Shown: piece by piece, positions 22,970 to 35,633 of the stretch
Position numbering within the stretch: position 1 is the first letter of the stretch
Layout: each line of letters starts with the position of its first letter
NCBI GenBank assembly: GCA_002327255.1
Contig: DCUM01000204.1
Location: forward strand, 781 to 64,780
DNA: 64,000 nucleotides
Reading direction: 5' to 3'
Source: a bacterium UBA2214
Lineage (GTDB): Bacteria; Zhuqueibacterota; Zhuqueibacteria; Residuimicrobiales; Residuimicrobiaceae
Program-made: the position numbers and the translations under genes
Notes under the pieces: model-generated
What the model was told of the DNA's origin: nothing
The model's input: the letters and a program-made list of their open reading frames with translations, nothing else
Databases searched by the model: none

Positions 22970-23578
22970 ATGGAAAAGCTGTCACGAAAACAGGAGAAGG
23001 CACTGGCGTTGATCGCCAAACGCACCCGCGAGCAGGGGTATCCGCCGACGCTGGCGGAGTTGACCGAGGAACTCGGGGCGGCCTCGAAAAACACCGCGGT
23101 CAAGTACCTGCGCATCCTCTCGCGCAAGGGCTATATCGTCTGGGAACGCAACAAGGCGCGGGGGATTCAGCTGACCGCCGATGCCGGCGGGGGCGAGGTG
23201 GGACTGCCGCTGATCGGCGCGGTGGCGGCCGGCGCGCCGTTGCTGGCCGAACAGAATATCGAACGCTATGTGACGGTGCCTTCCTGCTTGCTCCAGGCCA
23301 GTGCGCCGCATTTTCTCCTGCGCGTCGCCGGCCAGAGCATGCTCCAGGCCGGCATCCTGCCCGACGATCTCGTGGTGGTACGGGCGCAACCGCATGCGGC
23401 CGTGGGCGAAGTGGTGGTCGCCCTGATCGACGGGGAAGCCACGGTGAAACGGCTGGCGCAGAGCGCCGACCGCCTCTTTCTCAAGGCGGAAAATCCGGAA
23501 TTTGCCGACATCCACCCGCAAGGGGAGTGGTCGATTCAGGGCAAGGTGGTGGCGCTGATCCGCGAAGCGGTGGTGTGA
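22970..23578 (+). CDS. lexA: LexA repressor
   Basis: Internal Met of ORF 22796..23578 with a GGGAGGG RBS. N-terminal wHTH: MEKLSRKQEKALALIAKRTREQGYPPTLAELTEELG. C-terminal S24 peptidase: VAGQSMLQAGIL (Ser) and GKVVALIR (Lys). Confidence 0.85.
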   Translation: MEKLSRKQEKALALIAKRTREQGYPPTLAELTEELGAASKNTAVKYLRILSRKGYIVWERNKARGIQLTADAGGGEVGLPLIGAVAAGAPLLAEQNIERYVTVPSCLLQASAPHFLLRVAGQSMLQAGILPDDLVVVRAQPHAAVGEVVVALIDGEATVKRLAQSADRLFLKAENPEFADIHPQGEWSIQGKVVALIREAVV

Positions 23579-23854
23579 CAGGCGCCTGCAGCTCGACGCG
23601 TCTCGTCGACCTGCAGAACGGCGCTGTCCGGCTGTGCCTGCGATTTCGGCATTCTTCATTAAATGCAACGCGCTCGTCGATCGGCATGACAGCGCTGTCC
23701 TTAGGTGAAACGGCTTCTCAACGCGGCGGCGAAACGGCAGGAAATGGAGTATACCGATACCAAATCTCCTTGGCGAACTGTCGCAAAAGGGGCTGCCGAT
23801 CAGAAAGAAGACCATCCCCCGGCGCAAGGCGCGAAAAAGGGTGGAAGGGGAAAG

Positions 23855-23882
23855 GAAGAGAGAAGAGAGAAGAGAGAAGAGA
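23855..23882 (+). repeat. Tandem heptamer repeat (GAAGAGA)x4 within a ~60-bp polypurine tract upstream of imuB
   Basis: gaagaga gaagaga gaagaga gaagaga with degenerate flanks ggaagggg aaag and gaatgga gaagagg. The tract spans 23842..23899. Confidence 0.9.
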
Positions 23883-23962
23883 GAATGGAGAAGAGGGAAA
23901 AGGCCCCGGGTTCTGCCGCGCCTCTTACAGCAAACAGGGTGATTTCTTTGGACGGAAACTTT

Positions 23963-25126
23963 ATGTCGCGCACGATTTTGCATATCGACGTCAACGATTT
24001 TCCCGTGGCCGTGGAACGGGTGCTGGAGCCGCGCCTGCGGCAACGCCCCGTGGCCGTGGCGGTGGAGAGCGCCAGCCGCGCCCTCGTCGCCGCGCGTTCG
24101 CGCGAAGCGGCCGCCAACGGCGTGCAGCGCGGCATGCCCCTGCACCAGGCCCTGAAATACTGCCCGGATCTGACCGTGCTGCCCCCCAACGAAGCGCTCT
24201 ATCACCGCGCCACAACCGCGCTGCTGCACCTCCTCGGTCAGTTCACGCCCGTCATCGAACCGCTGCGCTTCGGCCACGCCTACCTCGACCTCACCGGCTC
24301 CGGCCGCCTCTTCGGCAACGGCGTCGATGCCGCCGCCCGCGCCCAGCGCGAAATCCGCGACCGCCTCCGCCTCGACGCCGTCGCCGGCGTCGCCAGCAAC
24401 AAACTGGTCAGCAAGGTCGCCTCCGATGTCATCACCGTCCGGAACCCGCAAACCGCCCTCTGCGACGTCCACTACGGCGAGGAACAACGCTTCCTCGCGC
24501 CGCTGCCGGTGGGCTATCTGCCCGGCGTGCAGAAAACCATCCGCGCCCAACTGACCGAACTCAACATCCACCGCATCCGGGAACTGGCGGGGATCAAATC
24601 CGAACACCTGCAGATGGTCTTCGGCCGCTTCGGCCTGCTGCTCTTCCAGCGCGCCCGCGGCATCGACGAGCGCCCGGTGATGCCGCCCCGGCGCAGCCCG
24701 GAGATCGTCGAAACCGTCGAACTGGCCGACGACGGCAACGACTATGAAGCGTTGCGCCGCCTGACCTTCGCGCTGCTCGCCCGCGCCACCCGCCGCCTGC
24801 GCCGCGACCGCCTCTTCACCCGGCACCTGGGGGTGGAAATCCTCTATGGCGATCACCGCCGCGACACGGCGCAGACCCGCACCGCCGCAGCGCAAACCGA
24901 CGCCGATCTCCTCGCCGTCGCCGAAACAACTTTGGGAAAGGCCCTGGCGCGGCGCGTGCGCGTACGCAAAATCACCCTGCGCCTCGGCGGCCTCGGCCCG
25001 GCCAGCGGCCAGCTCGGACTCTTTGCCGCCACCGAAAATCCCAAATATGCCGCGCTCACCGGCGCCATGGACAAAATCCGCGACCGCTTCGGCGATGCCG
25101 CCATCCGCTTCGGGTATGCCGCCTGA
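23963..25126 (+). CDS. imuB: ImuB, catalytically inactive Y-family DNA polymerase paralogue of the SOS mutagenesis cassette
   Basis: Starts MSRTILHIDVNDFPVAVE, aligning with DinB MRKIIHVDMDCFFAAVE but with the second Asp replaced by Asn. The SLDEAYLD catalytic DE position reads RFGHAYLD. Catalytic carboxylates are therefore lost, as is typical of ImuB. It sits between lexA and dnaE2. Confidence 0.75.
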   Translation: MSRTILHIDVNDFPVAVERVLEPRLRQRPVAVAVESASRALVAARSREAAANGVQRGMPLHQALKYCPDLTVLPPNEALYHRATTALLHLLGQFTPVIEPLRFGHAYLDLTGSGRLFGNGVDAAARAQREIRDRLRLDAVAGVASNKLVSKVASDVITVRNPQTALCDVHYGEEQRFLAPLPVGYLPGVQKTIRAQLTELNIHRIRELAGIKSEHLQMVFGRFGLLLFQRARGIDERPVMPPRRSPEIVETVELADDGNDYEALRRLTFALLARATRRLRRDRLFTRHLGVEILYGDHRRDTAQTRTAAAQTDADLLAVAETTLGKALARRVRVRKITLRLGGLGPASGQLGLFAATENPKYAALTGAMDKIRDRFGDAAIRFGYAA

Positions 25127-25246
25127 AACGGCGACAGGAGGGCGGCAATCCGGTGCGCCGGACAGCCCCGCAATGCAACGGAACGCCTGCAGAAAAAAGT
25201 TGATCTTTACCAAAATTATGCTAAATTGCTCCCTGGAGGCGCGACC

Positions 25247-26122
25247 ATGATCATCTCCGCCAGCCGCCGCACCGACATCCCGCGCTATTACGCCAAGTGG
25301 TTCATCCGCCGCGTGCGCGCCGGCCACTGCACCGTGCCCAATCCCTTCAATCCCGGACAGGTGCGCCGCGTCGACCTGCGCCCCGAAGCTGTCACCGCCC
25401 TGGTGTTCTGGACGCGGTTTCCAAAGCTGTTAATGCCCTATATACCGGAACTTGAACACAGGAAATTAAAGTTTTACTTTCAATATACCATCACGCGTTA
25501 TCCCGATCGGTATGAACCCGGCGCACCGCCCGCGGAGGAGGCGATCGCCTGCTTTCGTTCCCTGGCCCGGCTGTTGGGCCCGGGACGCATGATCTGGCGC
25601 TACGACCCGATTTTTTTCACGGATGAATGTGATCCGGACGATCATCTGCAGAACTTTGCACGCCTGTGCGCGCAGTTGCAGGGCTGCACCCGCAAGGTGG
25701 TGATCAGTTTTCTCGATGAATACCGCCGCACGCGGAGCCGGATGCGCGCGGCGGGCGTGGCTTATCCGGGCGATCCCCTGCAACATCCGGGTCTGAAGCC
25801 CCTGCTGCAGGCCATGGTGGAGATCGCCGCGCATCATCACCTGGGCATCGAATCGTGCGCCGAACCCGAATGGCTGCAATCGTATGGCATTGCCACAGGC
25901 CGCTGCATCGATGAGCGATTGCTGCAATCCGAATTCGGGGTAAGAGTGGCCTATAAAAAGGATCCGGGACAGCGTCCCCTGTGCGGCTGCATGCCGAGCA
26001 GGGACATTGGCAGCAACAATACCTGTCCGGCCGGCTGCCTGTACTGCTATGCCACCCCAAATCCTGCTCAGGCGCAAGAACGCTTTTGCCGCCATGACGT
26101 GAAGGCGGAATCTCTCATTTAA
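25247..26122 (+). CDS. DUF1848-family protein (putative Fe-S protein) embedded in SOS cassette
   Basis: GGAGG 8 nt before the ATG. N-terminal MIISASRRTDIPRYYAKWF resembles the DUF1848 signature ISASRRTDIPAFY. C-terminal CPAGCLYC is a CxxxCxxC motif. Confidence 0.55.
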   Translation: MIISASRRTDIPRYYAKWFIRRVRAGHCTVPNPFNPGQVRRVDLRPEAVTALVFWTRFPKLLMPYIPELEHRKLKFYFQYTITRYPDRYEPGAPPAEEAIACFRSLARLLGPGRMIWRYDPIFFTDECDPDDHLQNFARLCAQLQGCTRKVVISFLDEYRRTRSRMRAAGVAYPGDPLQHPGLKPLLQAMVEIAAHHHLGIESCAEPEWLQSYGIATGRCIDERLLQSEFGVRVAYKKDPGQRPLCGCMPSRDIGSNNTCPAGCLYCYATPNPAQAQERFCRHDVKAESLI

Positions 26123-26151
26123 TCCATTGGCCTCGAAAGGGAGTAACCACT

Positions 26152-27321
26152 ATGTCGAACGTGAAGATTATTCAATTTTCCAACAAAACCGCCCAGGATC
26201 GCCGTCTCTTGAAAGTATTCGTCGATTTTCACTGGAAACACTATGAGCACGATCCGCAGTACATCCCCCTGCTCGATTATGAGTATCTCGGATTCAAACT
26301 CCTCGGCATGACCGGTTTTTTTGAACCCGGCAATCTGTTCTTCAAGCATGGGGAAATGGTTTTTTTTCTGGCCCAGTGCGGCGATCACATCGTCGGCTGC
26401 TGCAACGCCTTTGTCAATCATAATCACAACAAACACTGGAATGACAAGGTCGGCTTCTTCGGCCAGTTCGAAACCATCGATGACCAGGAGGTCGCTGAAG
26501 CGCTGTTGAACGCCGCAGCCACCTGGCTGAGAAGCAAAGGCATGACCGCCATGCGCGGCCCGCAGAATCTGCCGGTCAACGAAGCCACCCCGGGGTGTCT
26601 GGTGGAGGGGTTCGACACCCGCCCCGTGGTCTATTATCATTACAACAAGCCCTATTATGAAAAGATTTTGCAAGCTTATCAGATGCAGGTGGTCAAACGC
26701 GTCAAATCCTGGGAAGTGCCCGTGGACCGGCCCATGGAGGAGAAGCTGGGGCGCGTCGGCAAAAAGGTGATGGAGCACTATGGCGTGCGCGTCGAAAACT
26801 GGGGAGAGCGGCCGTTGCCGGTGCGCAAGGAGGAGATGCTGCAGGTCTACAATGAGGCCTGGAATGACAACTGGGGCTATGTGCCCTTCACCCGGGAAGA
26901 GTTTTGCAAAAACATCGACGATATGCAACTGATCATGGAAAAAGGTCTCTTTATCTTTGTCTATGTCAAGGATGAATTGGCCGCTTTTTTTGGCGGCGTG
27001 CCGAATATTTTTGAACGCATGCAGCCGCTCTCCTGGTGCCGCCGTTGTGAATTTGTCCGCGCGGCGCGCATGCTGCTGTCCAGACACAAGATAAGAGGGT
27101 TCCGGCTCGGCTACATGGGCGTCCGGCCCAAATTCCGCCGGCTCGGCCTCGACGGCGTCATGTTGTGGCAGCAAAAGATCTTTGCGCAGCAGAAGGGTTA
27201 CGACTATAGCGATCTCGGCTGGGTGCTGGAAGATAATGTGCTGATCATACGCGTCGTCGAAATGATGCAGGACGTCAGGCTCTCCAAAGTCTATGCCATT
27301 TTTCAAAAAGAGCTTGTCTGA
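26152..27321 (+). CDS. Hypothetical protein, probable GNAT/FemAB-like acyltransferase fold, embedded in SOS cassette
   Basis: 389 aa with GGGAG RBS. It has two halves with an acyl-CoA N-acyltransferase-like pattern. No specific family is recognised with certainty. Confidence 0.45.
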   Translation: MSNVKIIQFSNKTAQDRRLLKVFVDFHWKHYEHDPQYIPLLDYEYLGFKLLGMTGFFEPGNLFFKHGEMVFFLAQCGDHIVGCCNAFVNHNHNKHWNDKVGFFGQFETIDDQEVAEALLNAAATWLRSKGMTAMRGPQNLPVNEATPGCLVEGFDTRPVVYYHYNKPYYEKILQAYQMQVVKRVKSWEVPVDRPMEEKLGRVGKKVMEHYGVRVENWGERPLPVRKEEMLQVYNEAWNDNWGYVPFTREEFCKNIDDMQLIMEKGLFIFVYVKDELAAFFGGVPNIFERMQPLSWCRRCEFVRAARMLLSRHKIRGFRLGYMGVRPKFRRLGLDGVMLWQQKIFAQQKGYDYSDLGWVLEDNVLIIRVVEMMQDVRLSKVYAIFQKELV

Positions 27322-27329
27322 GCGCTGCG

Positions 27330-30300
27330 ATGTCCCCGGCAGGAGCTCCCGGTGGTTTTGTCCACCTGCATGTTCACTCCCATTACAGTCTGTGCCGGGG
27401 CGCCAATACCATCGCGGATATCTGCCGCCGCGCCCGCGACATCGGCCTTTCTCATCTCGCCCTGACCGATACCAACGGCATCTACGGACTGGTGTGGTTT
27501 CTCCAGGAGGCGCGCGCGCAGGGTATCCAGCCCCTCATCGGCGCCTTTCTGCAGCACCAATCCAACCACGCGGTGATGCTGGCGAAAAATCGCGCCGGCT
27601 ACCGCACGCTGTGCCGCACCCTGACCGCCCTGCACGGGGATGACCCTTTCGACCTCATCACCTGGCTGCAGCGCAACCGGGAGCAGACCATCCTCTTCAG
27701 CGACGATCTCCAGCTGCTCACCGCCCTGACGGATTCCGGCGTGCGCGATGATCTCTACGCCGAGCTCATTCCGCACCGGCAACGCCACAAAATCCTGCAA
27801 TTCGCACGCGAAAGGCATCTTCCGCCGCTGGCGAGCCAGGGCGCCTATTTTCTCGACCGCGCCGATTATGCGGTGCATCGCCTCCTGCGCGCCATCGATC
27901 TGAACACCACGCTGACCCGTATTCCGGAGGCAGAACTGGCCGCGCCGCAGGCCTGTATGGCGACGCCGCGGGAGATGCAGCACTTTTTCCCGGATTGCCC
28001 GGAAGCCATCGAGAATACCCGCAAGATCGCCGCAGCATGCGCTTTCGATCTCGATTTCGGCGGCGCTATTTTTCCCTCTTTCAGCGGTCCGGATGGGGAG
28101 GATGCACAGACTTGTCTTCAGGATCAGGTCGAAAAAGGCGCCCTGTGGCGTTACGACGCCATCACACCTCCGGTTCAACAACGCATGGTGTATGAACTGG
28201 ATCTCATCAACCGCAAGGGATTCGCGCCCTATTTTCTGGTCGTCGCCGACGCCGTGCGCCAGGCGCCGCGCACCTGCGGACGCGGATCCGCGGCCGCCAG
28301 TCTGGTGAGCTATTGCCTCGGCATCACCCATGTCGATCCCATCAAATACGATCTTTTTTTCGAACGCTTTCTCAATCCGGGGCGCATCGATCCACCGGAT
28401 ATCGATGTCGATTTTCCCTGGGATGAGCGCGACGATATCATTGATTACCTCTTTCGCAAATATGGCCGGTCGTGCGTGGCCATGATCGCCAACCACAACG
28501 GCTTCAAGGCGCGCTCTGCCGTGCGTGAAATCGCCAAAGTGTATGGCCTCCCGGATCGCGAAATAGGCCTCATCACCAAAAAGCTGACCAGTTATTGGCA
28601 GCCCGGCAATCTTGAGGAAGTGATCGCCACCCATCCGGTTTTCCACGGCACGGAATTGCGTCCGCCGTGGCCCGAAATTTTGCAGATGGCAGATAAAATC
28701 CGCGGTTTTCCACGGCATCTTTCCATTCACTGCGGCGGCGTCGTCATCGCCCCGGATGGACTCGATCACTATTGTGCCGTGCAACCGGCCAAAAAGATAC
28801 TTCAACCTGCCGGCGTTCTCTCCCGCGGCGACACGGGGCTGCCGCGGGCGCTCGAGCATGTGCAAGTGGTACACTGGGAGAAAGACCAGTCGGAAGAGAT
28901 GGGTCTGGTGAAAATGGACATCCTCGGCAACCGCTCCCTGGCCGTCATCCGCGATGCACGCCGTGCGGTGCTGGACAACTATGGCGTGGAACTGGACTTC
29001 AACCGCATCAATCCCCAGGAAGATGAAGCGACCCGGGCGTTGCTGGCGCGCGGCGACACCATCGGCGTCTTTTATGTGGAATCACCCGCCATGCGGCAGT
29101 TGCAACGCAAGACCGGCAAAGGCGACTTTGAACATCTGGTCATTCACAGCTCCATCATCCGGCCGGCCGCGGCGGTCTTCATTCAGGAATACGTCCGCCG
29201 TTTGCGCGGCGGCGCCTGGACCCCCCTGCATCCGGCTGTGGAGGAGTTGCTCCGGGAAACCTATGGTATCATGGTCTATCAGGAGGACGTCTCGAAAGTC
29301 GCCATCGCTTTGGCCGATTTTGATGCATCCGGCGCCGACGAACTGCGCAAGATCGTCACCAAGAAAAACAAACATCGCCAGTTGGCTGATTATAAGGAGC
29401 GTTTTTTTTGCGGCGCCATGAAAAAAGGCGCCGACGCGGAGATGTGCGAAAAAATATGGGCGATGATCCTGAGTTTCGCCGAATACAGTTTTTGCAAGCC
29501 ACATTCGGCCTCCTTTGCGCTGGTCTCCTGCCAGTCGGCCTATTTGCGCGTTCATTATCCGGCCGAGTTCATCGCCGCGGTGATCAGCAATCAGGGCGGT
29601 TATTATTCGACCTTTGCGTATGTGTCGGAAGCGCGGCGCATGGGACTGGAAGTCCTGGCGCCGGACATCAACCAGAGTCTGCAGAAATACACGGGCGTGG
29701 AGCGTCAGGTGCGCGTGGGATTGATGCAATTGAAGGGATTGTCGCAGCACGCCCTTGAAACCGTGCTGGCGGAGAGAGAAAAAAACGGGCCCTTTGCTTC
29801 TTTTTGCGATTTTTTGTCCCGCGTCACTTTGGATGCGACGGATATTGCTATCTTTATAAAGGCGGGATGCTTTGATATCCTCGAATCGGGACAAACCCGG
29901 CCGCAACTGGTATGGCATCTGCATGGGTGGCAGGCGCAGAAAAAAGCGTTATCCACTCCCGGCGCCACCCTTTCTCTCTTTGAGGCAGACACCCGAACAC
30001 CGCAGGGACTTCCCGCTCCACCCGCCTATTGTGCCGAGCAAGTGTGGCGGATGGAAGAAGAAATTCTCGGATTTCTGCTGTCGCAGCATCCGCTGATGCT
30101 GTATACGGCCAAAATTCAGCGCATCCCGCATGTCCGGGGTTGTGATTTGCAGCGGCATATCGGCAAACGGGTTCATACCATCGGCTGGCTCATCACCGCC
30201 AAGGTGGTCAGCACCCGGAATAAAGACCTCATGGAATTCGTCAGTTTTGAAGACACGACGGCCATCTATGAGACCACTTTTTTCCCAAAAGCGTATGCCC

Positions 30301-30407
30301 GCTTCGCGCAGCGGATGAGCAACGATCGTCCCTTTCTGTTACAGGGCACAGTCGATGAACAATTTGGCGCCGTCTATCTGAATGTCGAAGAGATGAACTA
30401 TTTGTGA
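27330..30407 (+). CDS. dnaE2: Error-prone DNA polymerase DnaE2 (ImuC), Pol III alpha paralogue
   Basis: 1025 aa, a DnaE2-typical size. PHP domain HLHVHSHYSLCRGA. Catalytic FPDIDVDF. Finger GRGSAAASLVSYCLGITHVDP. It is the last gene of the lexA-imuB operon. Confidence 0.85.
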   Translation: MSPAGAPGGFVHLHVHSHYSLCRGANTIADICRRARDIGLSHLALTDTNGIYGLVWFLQEARAQGIQPLIGAFLQHQSNHAVMLAKNRAGYRTLCRTLTALHGDDPFDLITWLQRNREQTILFSDDLQLLTALTDSGVRDDLYAELIPHRQRHKILQFARERHLPPLASQGAYFLDRADYAVHRLLRAIDLNTTLTRIPEAELAAPQACMATPREMQHFFPDCPEAIENTRKIAAACAFDLDFGGAIFPSFSGPDGEDAQTCLQDQVEKGALWRYDAITPPVQQRMVYELDLINRKGFAPYFLVVADAVRQAPRTCGRGSAAASLVSYCLGITHVDPIKYDLFFERFLNPGRIDPPDIDVDFPWDERDDIIDYLFRKYGRSCVAMIANHNGFKARSAVREIAKVYGLPDREIGLITKKLTSYWQPGNLEEVIATHPVFHGTELRPPWPEILQMADKIRGFPRHLSIHCGGVVIAPDGLDHYCAVQPAKKILQPAGVLSRGDTGLPRALEHVQVVHWEKDQSEEMGLVKMDILGNRSLAVIRDARRAVLDNYGVELDFNRINPQEDEATRALLARGDTIGVFYVESPAMRQLQRKTGKGDFEHLVIHSSIIRPAAAVFIQEYVRRLRGGAWTPLHPAVEELLRETYGIMVYQEDVSKVAIALADFDASGADELRKIVTKKNKHRQLADYKERFFCGAMKKGADAEMCEKIWAMILSFAEYSFCKPHSASFALVSCQSAYLRVHYPAEFIAAVISNQGGYYSTFAYVSEARRMGLEVLAPDINQSLQKYTGVERQVRVGLMQLKGLSQHALETVLAEREKNGPFASFCDFLSRVTLDATDIAIFIKAGCFDILESGQTRPQLVWHLHGWQAQKKALSTPGATLSLFEADTRTPQGLPAPPAYCAEQVWRMEEEILGFLLSQHPLMLYTAKIQRIPHVRGCDLQRHIGKRVHTIGWLITAKVVSTRNKDLMEFVSFEDTTAIYETTFFPKAYARFAQRMSNDRPFLLQGTVDEQFGAVYLNVEEMNYL

Positions 30408-31664: not shown

Positions 31665-32402
31665 TCAGAGAAACCGGATATTGCGCTGTGAGAGGTCCGA
31701 TTCAATTTCCTGCAAATCAGTCCACTTGCCCACATCCCGCCAGTAGCAGTCATCCATCTGATGGCCCATGATGCGTTCACCCCGCCCCGCCGCCCGCAGA
31801 TAGGCGTCGATACTGGAAAATTTATCGGCGGGATAGTTGCCAAAAAGGAGTGGATCGATGACCTGAATGCCATTAAAGGCCCAAGGGAGGGGTTTGCCCC
31901 GGGGTTGGCGCACCCATTCACAGCGTCTTGCGTCGGCGGCCATCCGTCCGCATAAGAGGTGACTTTCATCGAACAACAAATAGCGCCGGGTGGGACGGCT
32001 TTGTAGCGCCAGCGTGGCCCTGTTGCCGTGGCGGAGGTGCGCTTCATAGAGCCGTTCCAGGGGCAGATCCGAAAAGACATCGACATTGTGCACCAGAATC
32101 GGGGCATCGCTGCCGAGGAGAGGTATCATCTTTTTGATGCCGCCGCCGGTCTCCAGGATCTCGGCTTCGATGGACAGATGTATTTTGAGAGTTTCCGCCG
32201 CATAGGTGGCGAGAAATTCAACGAGCTGGTCGGCGAGGTGGTGTCCATTGATGGCGATTTCGTCAAAACCGGCGTGCTGCAGCCGCTGCAGGACGTGGGC
32301 AAGGAGCGGCTTGCCCGCCACCGGGATCAACGCTTTGGGTGTTTTGTCGGTGAGCGGCCGCAAGCGGGTGCCGAATCCGGCCGCCAGGATCATCGCTCTC
32401 AT
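31665..32402 (-). CDS. murU: Sugar-1-phosphate nucleotidyltransferase (MurU-like N-acetylmuramate-1-P uridylyltransferase / mannose-1-P guanylyltransferase family)
   Basis: MRAMILAAGFGTRLRPLTDKTPKALIPVAGKPLL NTP-transferase motif. It is in an operon with an AmgK-like kinase. Confidence 0.65.
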   Translation of the reverse strand: MRAMILAAGFGTRLRPLTDKTPKALIPVAGKPLLAHVLQRLQHAGFDEIAINGHHLADQLVEFLATYAAETLKIHLSIEAEILETGGGIKKMIPLLGSDAPILVHNVDVFSDLPLERLYEAHLRHGNRATLALQSRPTRRYLLFDESHLLCGRMAADARRCEWVRQPRGKPLPWAFNGIQVIDPLLFGNYPADKFSSIDAYLRAAGRGERIMGHQMDDCYWRDVGKWTDLQEIESDLSQRNIRFL

Positions 32403-32812
32403 GAAAAATCCGGTTTGTCCATGTGGGTGAGCCGCACCTGAAAACCCTCGCGGCGCAGACGGGCAGCCATCAGATCGGCACAGTACACCGAGCGGTGCTG
32501 TCCGCCCGTGCAGCCGAAGGATACCATGAGGTGTCCAAAGCCGCGCTGCTGATAATTCAGGGCGCTGTCGCGGATCAGCGTCCAGGCGTTCTCAATAAAA
32601 CGTTCGACCTGGGGACTTTTTTCCAGAAAGTCGCGCACCTCCGGGTCTTCTCCGGTGCGCTTGTGAAATTCAGGATCACGGCCGGGATTGGGAAGGCCGC
32701 GACAATCAAAGACAAAACCGCCGCCGTGACCGCCTGGATCACGCGGAATGCCTGAGACATGGAAACCGAAACTGAAGACGGAGATGGTCAGTGCTTCATG
32801 GTCTTTCATCAT
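32399..32812 (-). CDS. Stand-alone RapZ (YhbJ) C-terminal domain homologue, 137 aa
   Basis: SFGFHVSGIPRD...GFVFDCRGLPNPGRDPEF...DFL and HLMVSFGCTGGQHRSVYCADLMA closely match the RapZ CTD ([47 protein letters not shown]). There is no P-loop N-domain. Confidence 0.65.
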   Translation of the reverse strand: MMKDHEALTISVFSFGFHVSGIPRDPGGHGGGFVFDCRGLPNPGRDPEFHKRTGEDPEVRDFLEKSPQVERFIENAWTLIRDSALNYQQRGFGHLMVSFGCTGGQHRSVYCADLMAARLRREGFQVRLTHMDKPDFS

Positions 32813-32839
32813 GCTATTTCCCTGATGGCGGGTGCCACC

Positions 32840-33859
32840 CTACAGGTCGCGCAAGGTGGCGTCCTCGATGAGATCGGTGAATATCCGCCGCAAAACCGGC
32901 AGGTGTTCGAGCAAAGCGGCTTTGTGGTTTATGATTTCCAGATTCTGCAGGGCGTAAGGGACCGATTTCAGGAAATTCTTTTTGCCTTTGACGGTGGCCA
33001 GATACCCATAGGCCCCGAAGGCCTGCATGACGCGGATCATCACAAACCCGTAAAAGTAATGGAGAAAGTTTTCCGCGTCGCAGGGCTCCACTTCCTGCAG
33101 ACAATAGAGATAGTAATTCAACAATTCCTCGCGCACCGCCTGGGGTATGCTGGCTTTGGCATCGAAGAGGAGGGAGGCGACATCGTATTGCAGCGCCCCG
33201 CGGCGTCCCGATTGAAAATCGATGAAATAGGGTTCATCCTCCAGGATCATGATGTTGCGCGACTGAAAATCGCGATAGAGGAAAGAATCACCCGGTGCCT
33301 CCAGCAGGTGGCTGACCAGACGGTCAAAATCGCCCTCGAGAGCGCTTGCGTCAAAAGGCCGTTGGTAGAAAGCCGAGAGGAAGCGATGTTGAAAATAGCG
33401 TAAATCCCAGATCATGGATTCCCGGGAAAACCGGGCGTGCTGGTAACAATAGGAATAATCGAGGCGGCGGCCCGCCGTGATCTGCAGCCGCGGCAGCCAC
33501 TTCAAGACCTTTTTGTACATATCGATGATGCGGGTAGAGAATCCACCCTGCTGGCGAATGGGCGTCATCCATTCAAACAGCGTATAATGGCCCAGATCCT
33601 GTTCCAGGTAGACGCCATTTTCGAGGTCCTCGATATATATTTCCGGTACCGGGATGCCGCAGGCGAAAAAATGTCTGGCGAATTGAACAAACGCTTCATT
33701 TTCAGGCCGGTTATCGCCGGCGACGCCGATGATGGAACGATACGCGTTCTGCATGCGATAGACGCGCCGCTCCGAGCCGTCGCCTTTGAGCGGATTAATG
33801 CGATCGGGCGTCTCGTCATAACAGGTACGAAAAAGTTTTTCCAGCAGCCTTGTTTCCAA
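32840..33859 (-). CDS. amgK: Aminoglycoside-phosphotransferase-fold sugar kinase, AmgK-like (MurNAc/GlcNAc anomeric kinase)
   Basis: APH-family catalytic loop YRDFQSRNIMI (HxDxxxxN variant) and DFQSGRRG (DFG-like). It is paired with a MurU-like gene. Confidence 0.6.
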   Translation of the reverse strand: METRLLEKLFRTCYDETPDRINPLKGDGSERRVYRMQNAYRSIIGVAGDNRPENEAFVQFARHFFACGIPVPEIYIEDLENGVYLEQDLGHYTLFEWMTPIRQQGGFSTRIIDMYKKVLKWLPRLQITAGRRLDYSYCYQHARFSRESMIWDLRYFQHRFLSAFYQRPFDASALEGDFDRLVSHLLEAPGDSFLYRDFQSRNIMILEDEPYFIDFQSGRRGALQYDVASLLFDAKASIPQAVREELLNYYLYCLQEVEPCDAENFLHYFYGFVMIRVMQAFGAYGYLATVKGKKNFLKSVPYALQNLEIINHKAALLEHLPVLRRIFTDLIEDATLRDL

Positions 33860-34007: not shown

Positions 34008-35633
34008 TTGGTGTTACACAGACTGATTCTTTTTTTTCTTGTTGTGCTCATCACCCCGCTGCAGGCGCAACTTCTCCAGGGCCGCGTCCGAGATGCGTAC
34101 ACGCGGCAACCGCTGGCCGGTGTATCGATCATCATCGAGGATTTGCAATCGGCGCAAAAGGATAGTGTCACGAGTGGTGAAGATGGCACCTGGGCATTGC
34201 AACGGAGCACGGGCATCAATGGCCCGGCGCGCTCGCCGCAACGGTTTGAACTCTATCCCAACTTTCCCAATCCCTTCAATCCGAGCACCGTCATCTCCTT
34301 CCAGACGCCGCACGCGGGTGCGGTGCAAATCACGGTCTACAACGTCCTTGGTCAGTTGATGGACACCCGGGAAGCTTTCCTCGCTCCCGGCCCGCACCGC
34401 ATTGGCTGGGACAGCAGGGGATCGGCCGGTGTCTATGTTTACCGCATCCGTTTCGGCCAGGAGATTCTCCAGGGCAAAATGCTGCAGTTGGATGATGGCA
34501 ACGGCAGCGGCTTGACCGCCTTCCATGCCGGTTCCGCCACGCAAGCGCTGTCCAAAGCCGCATCCGGCAAGGTGGCCCTGTACCTGAAAAAGTTCGCCTA
34601 TGCTTGCGATACGCTGCAGCTGACGCTTCAGGAAGCGGAATGGATCGAACACGGTCTGGAGACGATTCATCGCCGCAGCTGCGTCATCGATCTTCACAAC
34701 GATATTCTCGAACGGATGTATGAGAGTCCCACCTATCATCTCATCGATCGTCATACCATTTGGCAAACCGATATACCGCGTCTGGAGCAGGGCGGCATCG
34801 ATCTGCAGTTTTTCGCCATCTGGGTCAATCCCAAGGCATACAGCACAAATCCGTTCCAGACCGCATTGGCCATGATCGAACGCATGAAGGCCGAGATCGA
34901 TATGAGCCAGGGCAGGCTGCTGCAGGCGTTTTCAGCGGAAGAGGCGGAGCAAATTGTCGCTGGAAAAAAGATCGCCTATATGTTCGGGGTCGAGGGGGGG
35001 CACACCATCGAGAATGATTTGCAGAAACTCTATCAACTCTATCATCATGGTATGCGCTATCTCACCATCACCTGGAACAACAGCACCGACTGGGCGGTCT
35101 CCTGTGACGATGCGCGCCGCAACACCGTCGGGCTCTCGGAATTCGGCCGTCGCGTGATCCGCGCCTGCGATTCTCTGGGTGTGATGATTGATGTCTCCCA
35201 TGTCGGGGCGAAAACCATCCAGGACATTCTGCTCACCAGCAAGAACCCCATCGTAGCCACTCATTCGGGCGCCTACGCGTTGAGAGCTCATCAGCGCAAC
35301 CTCAGCGATGCCCAGATCAGAGCCCTTGCCGCCACAGGAGGGGTTGTGGGCGTCATCTTTTATCCGTCATTTCTGGTACCCAGCGGCACACGGTGCGATA
35401 TCTCCAGCGTGATCAGGCACATCGACCACCTGGTGCAGGTCGGCGGCATCGATCATGTTGCGCTCGGCTCCGATTTTGATGGCGTTTCCGATGTGCTTCC
35501 CCGTGGCCTCGAGGATGTCACCAAAATGCCGGATCTCACCGCAGCACTCCTGGCGCACGGATACACGTCTGAAGAAGTGCAGAAAATATTGGGTCGCAAC
35601 ATGCTGCGCGTCATCAGACGGGTCTGCCAATAG
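34008..35633 (+). CDS. Membrane dipeptidase (peptidase M19) with N-terminal carboxypeptidase-regulatory-like and FlgD-Ig/T9SS-tail-like domains
   Basis: Signal peptide. FELYPNFPNPFNPSTVISF...VYVYRIRFGQEILQGKMLQL is FlgD-Ig-like. M19 motifs: VIDLHNDIL, IDVSHVG, HSGAYAL. Confidence 0.75.
   Translation: MVLHRLILFFLVVLITPLQAQLLQGRVRDAYTRQPLAGVSIIIEDLQSAQKDSVTSGEDGTWALQRSTGINGPARSPQRFELYPNFPNPFNPSTVISFQTPHAGAVQITVYNVLGQLMDTREAFLAPGPHRIGWDSRGSAGVYVYRIRFGQEILQGKMLQLDDGNGSGLTAFHAGSATQALSKAASGKVALYLKKFAYACDTLQLTLQEAEWIEHGLETIHRRSCVIDLHNDILERMYESPTYHLIDRHTIWQTDIPRLEQGGIDLQFFAIWVNPKAYSTNPFQTALAMIERMKAEIDMSQGRLLQAFSAEEAEQIVAGKKIAYMFGVEGGHTIENDLQKLYQLYHHGMRYLTITWNNSTDWAVSCDDARRNTVGLSEFGRRVIRACDSLGVMIDVSHVGAKTIQDILLTSKNPIVATHSGAYALRAHQRNLSDAQIRALAATGGVVGVIFYPSFLVPSGTRCDISSVIRHIDHLVQVGGIDHVALGSDFDGVSDVLPRGLEDVTKMPDLTAALLAHGYTSEEVQKILGRNMLRVIRRVCQ

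Follow-up and report, generated by a model that had tools for sequence, protein, structure and literature searches.

We analysed a stretch of 64,000 nucleotides (hereafter the window) from contig DCUM01000204.1 of the bacterium UBA2214, with emphasis on a small gene whose product resembles the C-terminal domain (CTD) of RapZ. Three co-directional open reading frames (ORFs) lie on the minus strand at positions 31665..33859, in the order kinase (K), RapZ_C protein (Z) and uridylyltransferase (U), and the start codon of U overlaps the stop codon of Z in the 4 nt ATGA (Table 1). An earlier note on this DNA had described Z as an orphan RapZ CTD, placed between an AmgK-like kinase and a MurU-like uridylyltransferase and overlapping the latter by 4 nt, and both the order of the genes and the overlap were found to be as described. 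Here we show that Z consists of the RapZ CTD only, and that elsewhere this domain is mostly fused covalently to the kinase; the Z of the window is a domain that has become detached from an enzyme system of several domains.

Table 1. Genes and sequence features of the K-Z-U locus (positions of the window).
Feature	Position	Strand	Remarks
K, AmgK-like APH-fold sugar kinase, 339 aa	33859..32840	-	TTG start, TAG stop
K/Z spacer, 27 nt	32813..32839	-	both ORFs in same frame
Z, RapZ C-terminal domain protein, 137 aa	32812..32399	-	PF22740; 5O5S; AF2 model
Gly-rich insert G27-G-H-G-G-G32, subfamily-specific	32717..32734	-	replaces E. coli D176-A177-D178
Pocket rim N42-P-G-R45	32678..32689	-	E. coli N188-P-H190-W191; G44, R45 invariant in alignments A1, A2
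Phosphate-binding loop G100-C-T-G-G-Q-H-R-S108 (Cys-X5-Arg-Ser)	32489..32515	-	invariant in alignments A1, A2
U, MurU-like sugar-1-phosphate uridylyltransferase, 245 aa	32402..31665	-	NF045761; 4Y7T

Z matched Pfam PF22740 (RapZ C-terminal domain) with an E value of 1.2e-33 and 116.3 bits (cut-off 27) over positions 1-119 of the 121 in the profile, and this was the sole domain detected in it. When compared with the NCBIfam RapZ model NF003828, only profile positions 156-277 of 278 were matched (105 bits; cut-off 244). The motifs quoted in the earlier note were all present in Z, as SFGF..GIP, FDCRGLPNP and GCTGGQHRSV. A phmmer search of PDB with Z retrieved the E. coli RapZ CTD (5O5S, E 4e-17), and the AlphaFold2 (AF2) model of Z (pLDDT 94.5, pTM 0.89) superposed on 5O5S with a TM-score of 0.90 and a root-mean-square deviation of 1.4 A. 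Z thus has the CTD fold of E. coli RapZ (YhbJ; PDB 5O5O, 5O5Q, 5O5S, 8B0I, 8B0J), with which it shares 38% identity. Foldseek searches with the model gave only RapZ entries as significant matches among PDB. The RapZ CTD has been called PFK-like in the literature (PMC9841335), and 6-phosphofructokinase (PFK) chains, which carry a sugar-phosphate-binding subdomain, did occur among the weak Foldseek matches of Z (ranks 26 and 49); however, their E values of ~0.4-1.4 were below significance, the TM-score was at most 0.36 and no sequence relationship to Z was detectable. Homologues of Z of 130-140 aa form a large family. A tblastn search for the RapZ N-domain gave no match in either the 64-kb window or the 80 related loci; it was made with an E. 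coli RapZ sequence whose CTD part agrees with the 5O5S phmmer alignment. Z is therefore the RapZ CTD alone, without the P-loop N-terminal domain, as had been proposed from the letters. A full-length rapZ interrupted by a sequencing frameshift was also considered and ruled out, since no N-domain was found by tblastn and the upstream ORF encodes an APH-fold kinase.

K matched the Pfam APH family (PF01636) with an E value of 1e-12, and its translation shows the catalytic-loop motifs YRDFQSRN and IDFQ. Its residues 6-309 aligned with positions 7-304 of the 324 in the NCBIfam AmgK model NF045759 (E 2e-15), and 3CSV was its top relative in PDB (E 8.5e-16). The homology extends over the full length but is weak, with bit scores of 56.6 for NF045759 (cut-off 550) and 38.7 for NF045698 (cut-off 500). 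A protein identical to K is already on record (P0121). The top NCBIfam family of U was MurU, NF045761 (E 3e-44, 151.5 bits; cut-off 250), and its closest solved relatives were the MurU of Pseudomonas putida (4Y7T, E 1.8e-30, full length) and a second MurU (8HHD, E 2.7e-26). The AmgK-MurU route converts N-acetylmuramic acid (MurNAc) to MurNAc-alpha-1-P and then to UDP-MurNAc; it has been described in P. putida, P. aeruginosa, Caulobacter and Tannerella forsythia, and is said to occur in Bacteroides. As in that pair, an APH-fold kinase gene is followed in the window, in the same direction, by a gene for a small nucleoside triphosphate (NTP)-transferase closest to P. putida MurU. In contrast, the published descriptions of the route in Pseudomonas, Caulobacter, Tannerella and Bacteroides name no RapZ-like module, and the NCBIfam AmgK models, which are 324 and 360 positions long, represent proteobacterial AmgK without RapZ_C.

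A single TAG and nine codons part K from Z with the frame unchanged, which was overlooked in the earlier note. The junction reads ...CTG TAG GGT GGC ACC CGC CAT CAG GGA AAT AGC ATG ATG, and reading through it in frame gives ...ATLRDL*GGTRHQGNSMMKDHEALT.... As K and Z lie in one frame, the question arises whether both were ever one gene, and the lone TAG would fit a K-Z fusion gene that had been misread in sequencing or had lately acquired a nonsense mutation. The evidence from other assemblies and from relatives speaks against such an artefact. Independent assemblies from NCBI, ENA, JGI and Logan contain K (339 aa) and Z (136-137 aa) in identical or almost identical form. We traced stand-alone homologues of Z with 51-69% identity to their contigs (n=8), and in seven of the eight the three genes for APH kinase, RapZ_C and NTP-transferase were laid out as in the window, mostly with overlaps of 4 nt, the wider synteny of the window also being kept in five of these seven split loci. 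The K/Z junctions of the seven comprised three ATGA overlaps and otherwise gaps of 0-18 nt, and K and Z were in different frames in four of them. In addition, Z of the window has its own ATG with a purine-rich stretch ahead of it, and TAG is an ordinary stop here, used by 6 of 33 other window genes. A sequencing error or pseudogene was accordingly rejected and is extremely unlikely, the split being conserved in relatives with different junctions. Because the split relatives show varied junctions and frames, the K/Z split of the window is a genuine, old gene fission with translational coupling, and neither a frameshift nor a pseudogene nor a recoding signal. Conservation of the short form between AmgK-like and MurU-like genes, down to 51% identity, also makes its link with the salvage enzymes a real one, and so bears out the tie to the salvage of MurNAc and N-acetylglucosamine-1-phosphate that had been suggested from this one locus.

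The state of the domain in other genomes was examined in three ways. An artificial concatenation of K and Z, used as query, retrieved dozens of natural proteins of ~472-490 aa carrying PF01636 and PF22740, with about 50% identity and 96-100% query coverage, from KSB1, Calditrichota, NC10, Elusimicrobiota and unclassified metagenome-assembled genomes. GTDB genomes, one for each species, were also scanned by pattern, and the best 80 of at least 600 matching stretches were taken as loci; they span Acidobacteriota, Bacteroidota, Elusimicrobiota, Ignavibacteriales, Eremiobacterota and Opitutaceae among others. The kinase was directly upstream of the RapZ_C match in 77 of the 80 loci, and a MurU-like gene directly downstream in 44-55, a pairing that recurred in 7/8 of the traced split loci. 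K and Z formed one ORF of about 470-510 aa in 69 loci. A separate Z with K upstream was found in two, one of them in the isolate Chryseobacterium sp. KLBC 52 (L045), and a lone Z without kinase, in uninformative contexts, in three (L001, L039, L072). Clustering of the ORFs of the 80 loci gave, beyond K-Z and U, no gene family in more than five loci; anmK, mupP, murQ, nagZ and ampG were considered as conserved neighbours and none was recurrent.

In an exhaustive phmmer search of 1.84 billion representatives of 50% clusters, 3902 hits passed E <= 1e-3, of which 1280 also passed E <= 1e-10. The best 150 cluster representatives comprised 104 K+Z proteins (90 of them at least 450 aa long), 22 with Z alone (<=170 aa), 17 that exceeded 170 aa but likewise showed only Z, most of these being fragments or extended forms, four Z+U and three K+Z+U (712-816 aa). 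The domain order among these 150 was K-Z-U without exception, and the linkers were short. Pfam confirmed the triple fusions P0315 (733 aa), P0368 (712 aa) and P0385 (816 aa), as well as the double Z+U fusions P0267, P0357 and P0410 of ~385 aa. The description of Z as an orphan, stand-alone module is therefore misleading, as fusion to the kinase prevails in 69/80 loci and 104/150 representatives.

Z has a highly conserved loop that corresponds to part of the ligand pocket of E. coli RapZ. The segment C101-TGGQH-R107-S108 is equivalent to C247-TGGKH-R-S254 of the E. coli protein, part of the pocket defined in PMC9841335, which binds sulphate or malonate. Five of the six pocket residues (C101, T102, G103, H106 and R107) are identical in the two proteins. 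At the sixth, E. coli H190 is replaced by Gly44 in Z, with the invariant Arg45 next to it; the NPGR motif of this rim occurred at a frequency of 62-97% across the sequence sets examined. D36, R38 and H130 of Z correspond to E. coli D182, R184 and H276, so that C247, T248, G249, H252, R253, D182, R184 and H276 are all kept in Z. The 5-residue Gly-rich insert, which is absent from E. coli RapZ, adjoins the position of I175, a residue placed near the pocket in PMC9841335, and its motif (H/N)xGG(F/Y) was present in about 93% of 295 family members. The phosphate loop motif was found in 294/295 family sequences and lies in the model where strand 94-101 ends and helix 107-121 begins. In all, 21 of the 137 residues of Z are invariant. 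The isolated E. coli CTD binds glucosamine-6-phosphate (GlcN6P) with a KD of 10 nM, and the pocket is reported to be conserved across RapZ homologues, while the RNA-binding region and the small RNAs (sRNAs) GlmY/GlmZ are restricted to Enterobacteriaceae (PMC7073468).

RNA binding, on the other hand, appears to have been lost from Z. Of the seven basic residues that contact RNA in E. coli RapZ, five (K170, K194, R196, R238 and K251) are replaced by H, E, H, F and Q, respectively, and the RNA-binding 'quad' of K270, K281, R282 and K283 is wholly replaced by F, D, F and S. There is no basic tail, as Z terminates 7 residues past H130. Z has a pI of 6.6 and a net charge of -0.9, close to the median pI of 6.4 in its family, compared to 9.5 and +5.3 for the E. 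coli CTD. No Rfam family, GlmY/GlmZ included, was matched in the window, and a scan for promoters and terminators near the operon gave scores no better than those of shuffled sequences. With the pocket kept, the basic residues and the tail absent, the pI near neutral and no Rfam family found, RNA binding by Z is unlikely and a small anionic ligand is likely. The earlier note had pointed to the RNA-binding side of the RapZ CTD, which does not extend to Z. An RNA-binding adaptor or signalling protein like RapZ, exerting post-transcriptional control over amino-sugar genes, could be argued for from the domain family and fold that Z shares with RapZ and from the binding of GlmY/GlmZ that the isolated E. 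coli CTD retains (PMC7073468). Besides the lost residues and tail, the near-neutral or acidic pI, the empty Rfam search and the confinement of the RNA-binding region and its sRNAs to Enterobacteriaceae, the domain is usually a covalent part of a metabolic enzyme, and we regard such an adaptor role as very improbable.

The proposed sugar-phosphate binding or regulation by Z is consistent with the conserved pocket. We tentatively favour, at somewhat less than even odds, a reading of Z as a subunit that binds a phospho-amino-sugar and serves as a bridge between kinase and transferase or as their regulator. Z would associate physically with K and U, an association suggested by the Rosetta-stone fusions, the short linkers and the translational coupling at both junctions. 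Its putative pocket would bind a phosphorylated or acidic amino-sugar of the pathway, and Z would link the activity of the anomeric kinase with that of the uridylyltransferase and with the status of the precursors. Such a regulator, which is our preferred reading, would parallel by analogy the GlcN6P sensing of the E. coli CTD and the role of Bacillus subtilis YvcJ linked to UDP-N-acetylglucosamine (UDP-GlcNAc).

Several points weigh against this reading. K and U score far under the AmgK and MurU equivalog cut-offs, so that the substrates of the clade are ones we infer from homology. When a natural K-Z fusion was modelled with AF2, the domains were confident (pLDDT 91.9) but the pTM was only 0.71, and the model speaks neither for nor against a fixed K-Z interface. 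The invariant Cys in a Cys-X5-Arg loop and the 21/137 invariant residues resemble those of an enzyme more than those of a sensor. Two observations on E. coli RapZ are hints of catalysis (PMC9841335): the C247S variant is inactive, the -SH of this Cys having, according to the authors, perhaps 'a specialised catalytic function', and the density in the pocket of CTD crystals with GlcN6P was described as 'likely a chemically transformed product'.

These observations also form part of the case for Z as a catalytic module of K-Z-U rather than a binding subunit, which we consider doubtful yet the more serious of the other readings. Cys101, Arg107 and Ser108 are invariant in 294/295 sequences, and the conservation of Z as a whole is very high. 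The C-X5-R-(S/T) signature of Cys-dependent phosphatases is present in Z, both in the sequence and at a strand-to-helix junction of the model, as in P-loop phosphatases. A Cys at the end of a strand and an Arg at the start of a helix form the geometry of Cys-X5-Arg phosphate cradles, the architecture of protein tyrosine phosphatases (PTPs). Furthermore, Z stands between K and U and is fused to one or both, as consecutive enzymes often are, and the use of 1,6-anhydro-MurNAc by T. forsythia, for which AnmK is not predicted, has been called unresolved (PMC7670621). However, Foldseek showed no global fold likeness of Z to PTP, low-molecular-weight PTP, ArsC or EIIB, and Pseudomonas and Caulobacter operate AmgK-MurU without RapZ_C. 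The literature search found no published enzymatic activity for any RapZ CTD, and a MurNAc-6-P phosphatase together with MurK would presumably create a futile cycle in Bacteroidetes without AnmK.

A more far-reaching form of the catalytic idea, which we regard as rather unlikely, is that the RapZ CTD is at root a catalytic transformer of amino-sugar phosphates that acts through Cys-X5-Arg, and that it performs an unrecognised third step of MurNAc salvage. This step might, for example, be a MupP-independent dephosphorylation, a phospho-transfer, or an anomer or isomer conversion, and enterobacterial RapZ, in sensing GlcN6P and binding sRNAs, would then have put the same active site to a moonlighting use at a later stage. 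MupP of Pseudomonas is a haloacid dehalogenase (HAD)-type MurNAc-6-P phosphatase with an Asp nucleophile, in contrast to the Cys-X5-Arg loop of Z, and the two folds are unrelated. In the characterised systems mupP has not been described within the amgK-murU pair, and its locus tag is distant in Caulobacter; an analogy between Z and MupP would be only a hypothesis. A role of Z as a mere scaffold between kinase and transferase is improbable, for a scaffold would need neither the invariant Cys-X5-Arg/His pocket nor, at its rim, Arg45 and the invariant Gly-rich insert that marks the subfamily.

Z differs from the known members of the RapZ family in its setting. Like E. coli RapZ, Z is tied to amino-sugar and cell-envelope precursor metabolism, but its partners are an APH-fold sugar kinase and a uridylyltransferase, and not RNase E, GlmY/GlmZ or QseE/F, and it lacks the P-loop domain and has Gly and an invariant Arg in place of His190. 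The usual context of rapZ is rpoN-hpf-ptsN-rapZ-npr in Proteobacteria and yvcJ-glmR-whiA in Firmicutes. The Pfam scan covered 33 window ORFs, all within the first ~48.3 kb and without several shorter ones; no partner genes of either context were detected among them, and the rpoN-ptsN-npr surroundings of E. coli RapZ are absent around Z. Nothing else related to peptidoglycan recycling was detected among these scanned ORFs either. YvcJ of B. subtilis is a RapZ family protein that acts together with GlmR/YvcK and UDP-GlcNAc and is connected with the sensing of a UDP-amino-sugar, not with the enterobacterial sRNAs (PMC7525490). YvcJ shows that a metabolite-linked, non-RNA role is normal for the RapZ family. 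Unlike Z, YvcJ is a full-length protein with two domains, and its binding of UDP-GlcNAc needs the Walker A motif of the N-domain (PMC9841335). A glmR-like gene was absent beside Z among the window ORFs and in the 80 loci.

Our literature search retrieved no paper that pairs RapZ with AmgK, nor one that describes a RapZ_C architecture for AmgK in Bacteroidetes, in agreement with the belief expressed in the earlier note that the arrangement is uncharacterised. The only paper with both RapZ and MurU was a preprint on the RNA-binding proteome of Bacillus sporulation, the available text of which concerns RNA-binding proteins. The K-Z-U architecture, while visible to Pfam and to automated annotation, appears to be uncharacterised. 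It adds a RapZ-type module to AmgK-MurU salvage or, equivalently, places the RapZ CTD in the context of a metabolic enzyme. The AmgK-MurU shortcut bypasses MurA/MurB and is the basis of intrinsic fosfomycin tolerance; it is also behind the MurNAc auxotrophy of Tannerella and the widely used labelling of peptidoglycan with N-acetylmuramic acid (NAM) probes. Outside Proteobacteria this salvage pathway appears to carry a third, strictly conserved and unstudied module, which was found in Bacteroidota, Acidobacteriota, KSB1, Calditrichota, Elusimicrobiota, NC10 and others. The finding touches two fields, namely peptidoglycan sugar salvage, which acquires an unexplained third component, and the RapZ CTD with its pocket and essential cysteine. 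The primordial role of this domain and its cysteine could be approached through the small, soluble, stand-alone Z and the natural fusions, and suitable candidates are Z of the window, Z of Chryseobacterium sp. KLBC 52 and the natural K-Z and K-Z-U fusions.

In automated annotation the name 'RNase adapter RapZ' is given to stand-alone proteins of ~134 aa and to kinase fusions of ~477 aa alike (P0003, P0013, P0060, P0096, P0171, P0197 and P0206), an alternative NCBI/IMG label being 'RNase adaptor protein for sRNA GlmZ degradation'. The RapZ label is an over-annotation, because the P-loop domain and the RNA-binding residues are absent. A minority of RapZ_C genes stand alone without a nearby K or U (L001, L039, L072 and L090), next to rimO/L17/asd, a major facilitator superfamily transporter, restriction/Fic genes and pheS; the genes for K and U may lie at other loci of these lineages, or the domain may serve a different function there. 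Four KSB1 proteins of 215-222 aa (P0050, P0057, P0061 and P0353) carry RapZ_C followed by a C-terminal, Cys-rich extension of ~85 residues with the consensus ...C..C..A.LP.DEAIDGS.SCRTFSALWCN...PCS..YGKRRPKAGW. The extension gave no Pfam match in P0061 and P0353, the two that were scanned, and could be a metal- or Fe-S-binding add-on.

The neighbours of the K-Z-U locus identified by Pfam are an adenosine deaminase, a DnaE-like polymerase and an M19 dipeptidase. The adenosine deaminase gene (PF00962; 30437-31519, plus strand) is convergent to or beside the MurU-like gene, and its placement is the same in five syntenic relatives (L081, L084, L086, L087 and L089); this adjacency probably reflects lineage synteny and not function. 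The closest relatives also keep the positions of the DnaE-like polymerase, DUF4254, rubrerythrin-like and class-V aminotransferase genes. On the other side, at 34008-35633 of the plus strand, lies the gene for a 541-aa M19 membrane dipeptidase (PF01244, residues 220-537) with an N-terminal CarboxypepD_reg-like domain. This protein holds an internal, not C-terminal, stretch resembling a sorting tail of the type IX secretion system (LYPNFPNPFNPSTVISF...), and its homologue in L081 has a faint Por_Secre_tail match.

Further away, a 781-aa ORF at 22982-25327 of the minus strand has no Pfam match and is overlapped by ORFs at 23527-25126 of the plus strand. The GC content spikes around it, reaching 65.7% at 24-26 kb as compared to about 55% elsewhere, with long ORFs on both strands. 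At 25226-30407 of the plus strand are co-directional genes for a DUF1848 protein (298 aa), a 389-aa ORF without Pfam match and a 1025-aa DnaE-type polymerase with PHP, pol3 alpha, finger and HHH domains. The cluster is reminiscent of an error-prone DnaE2 cassette, with what would be non-canonical partners, and is kept in L081 and L084.

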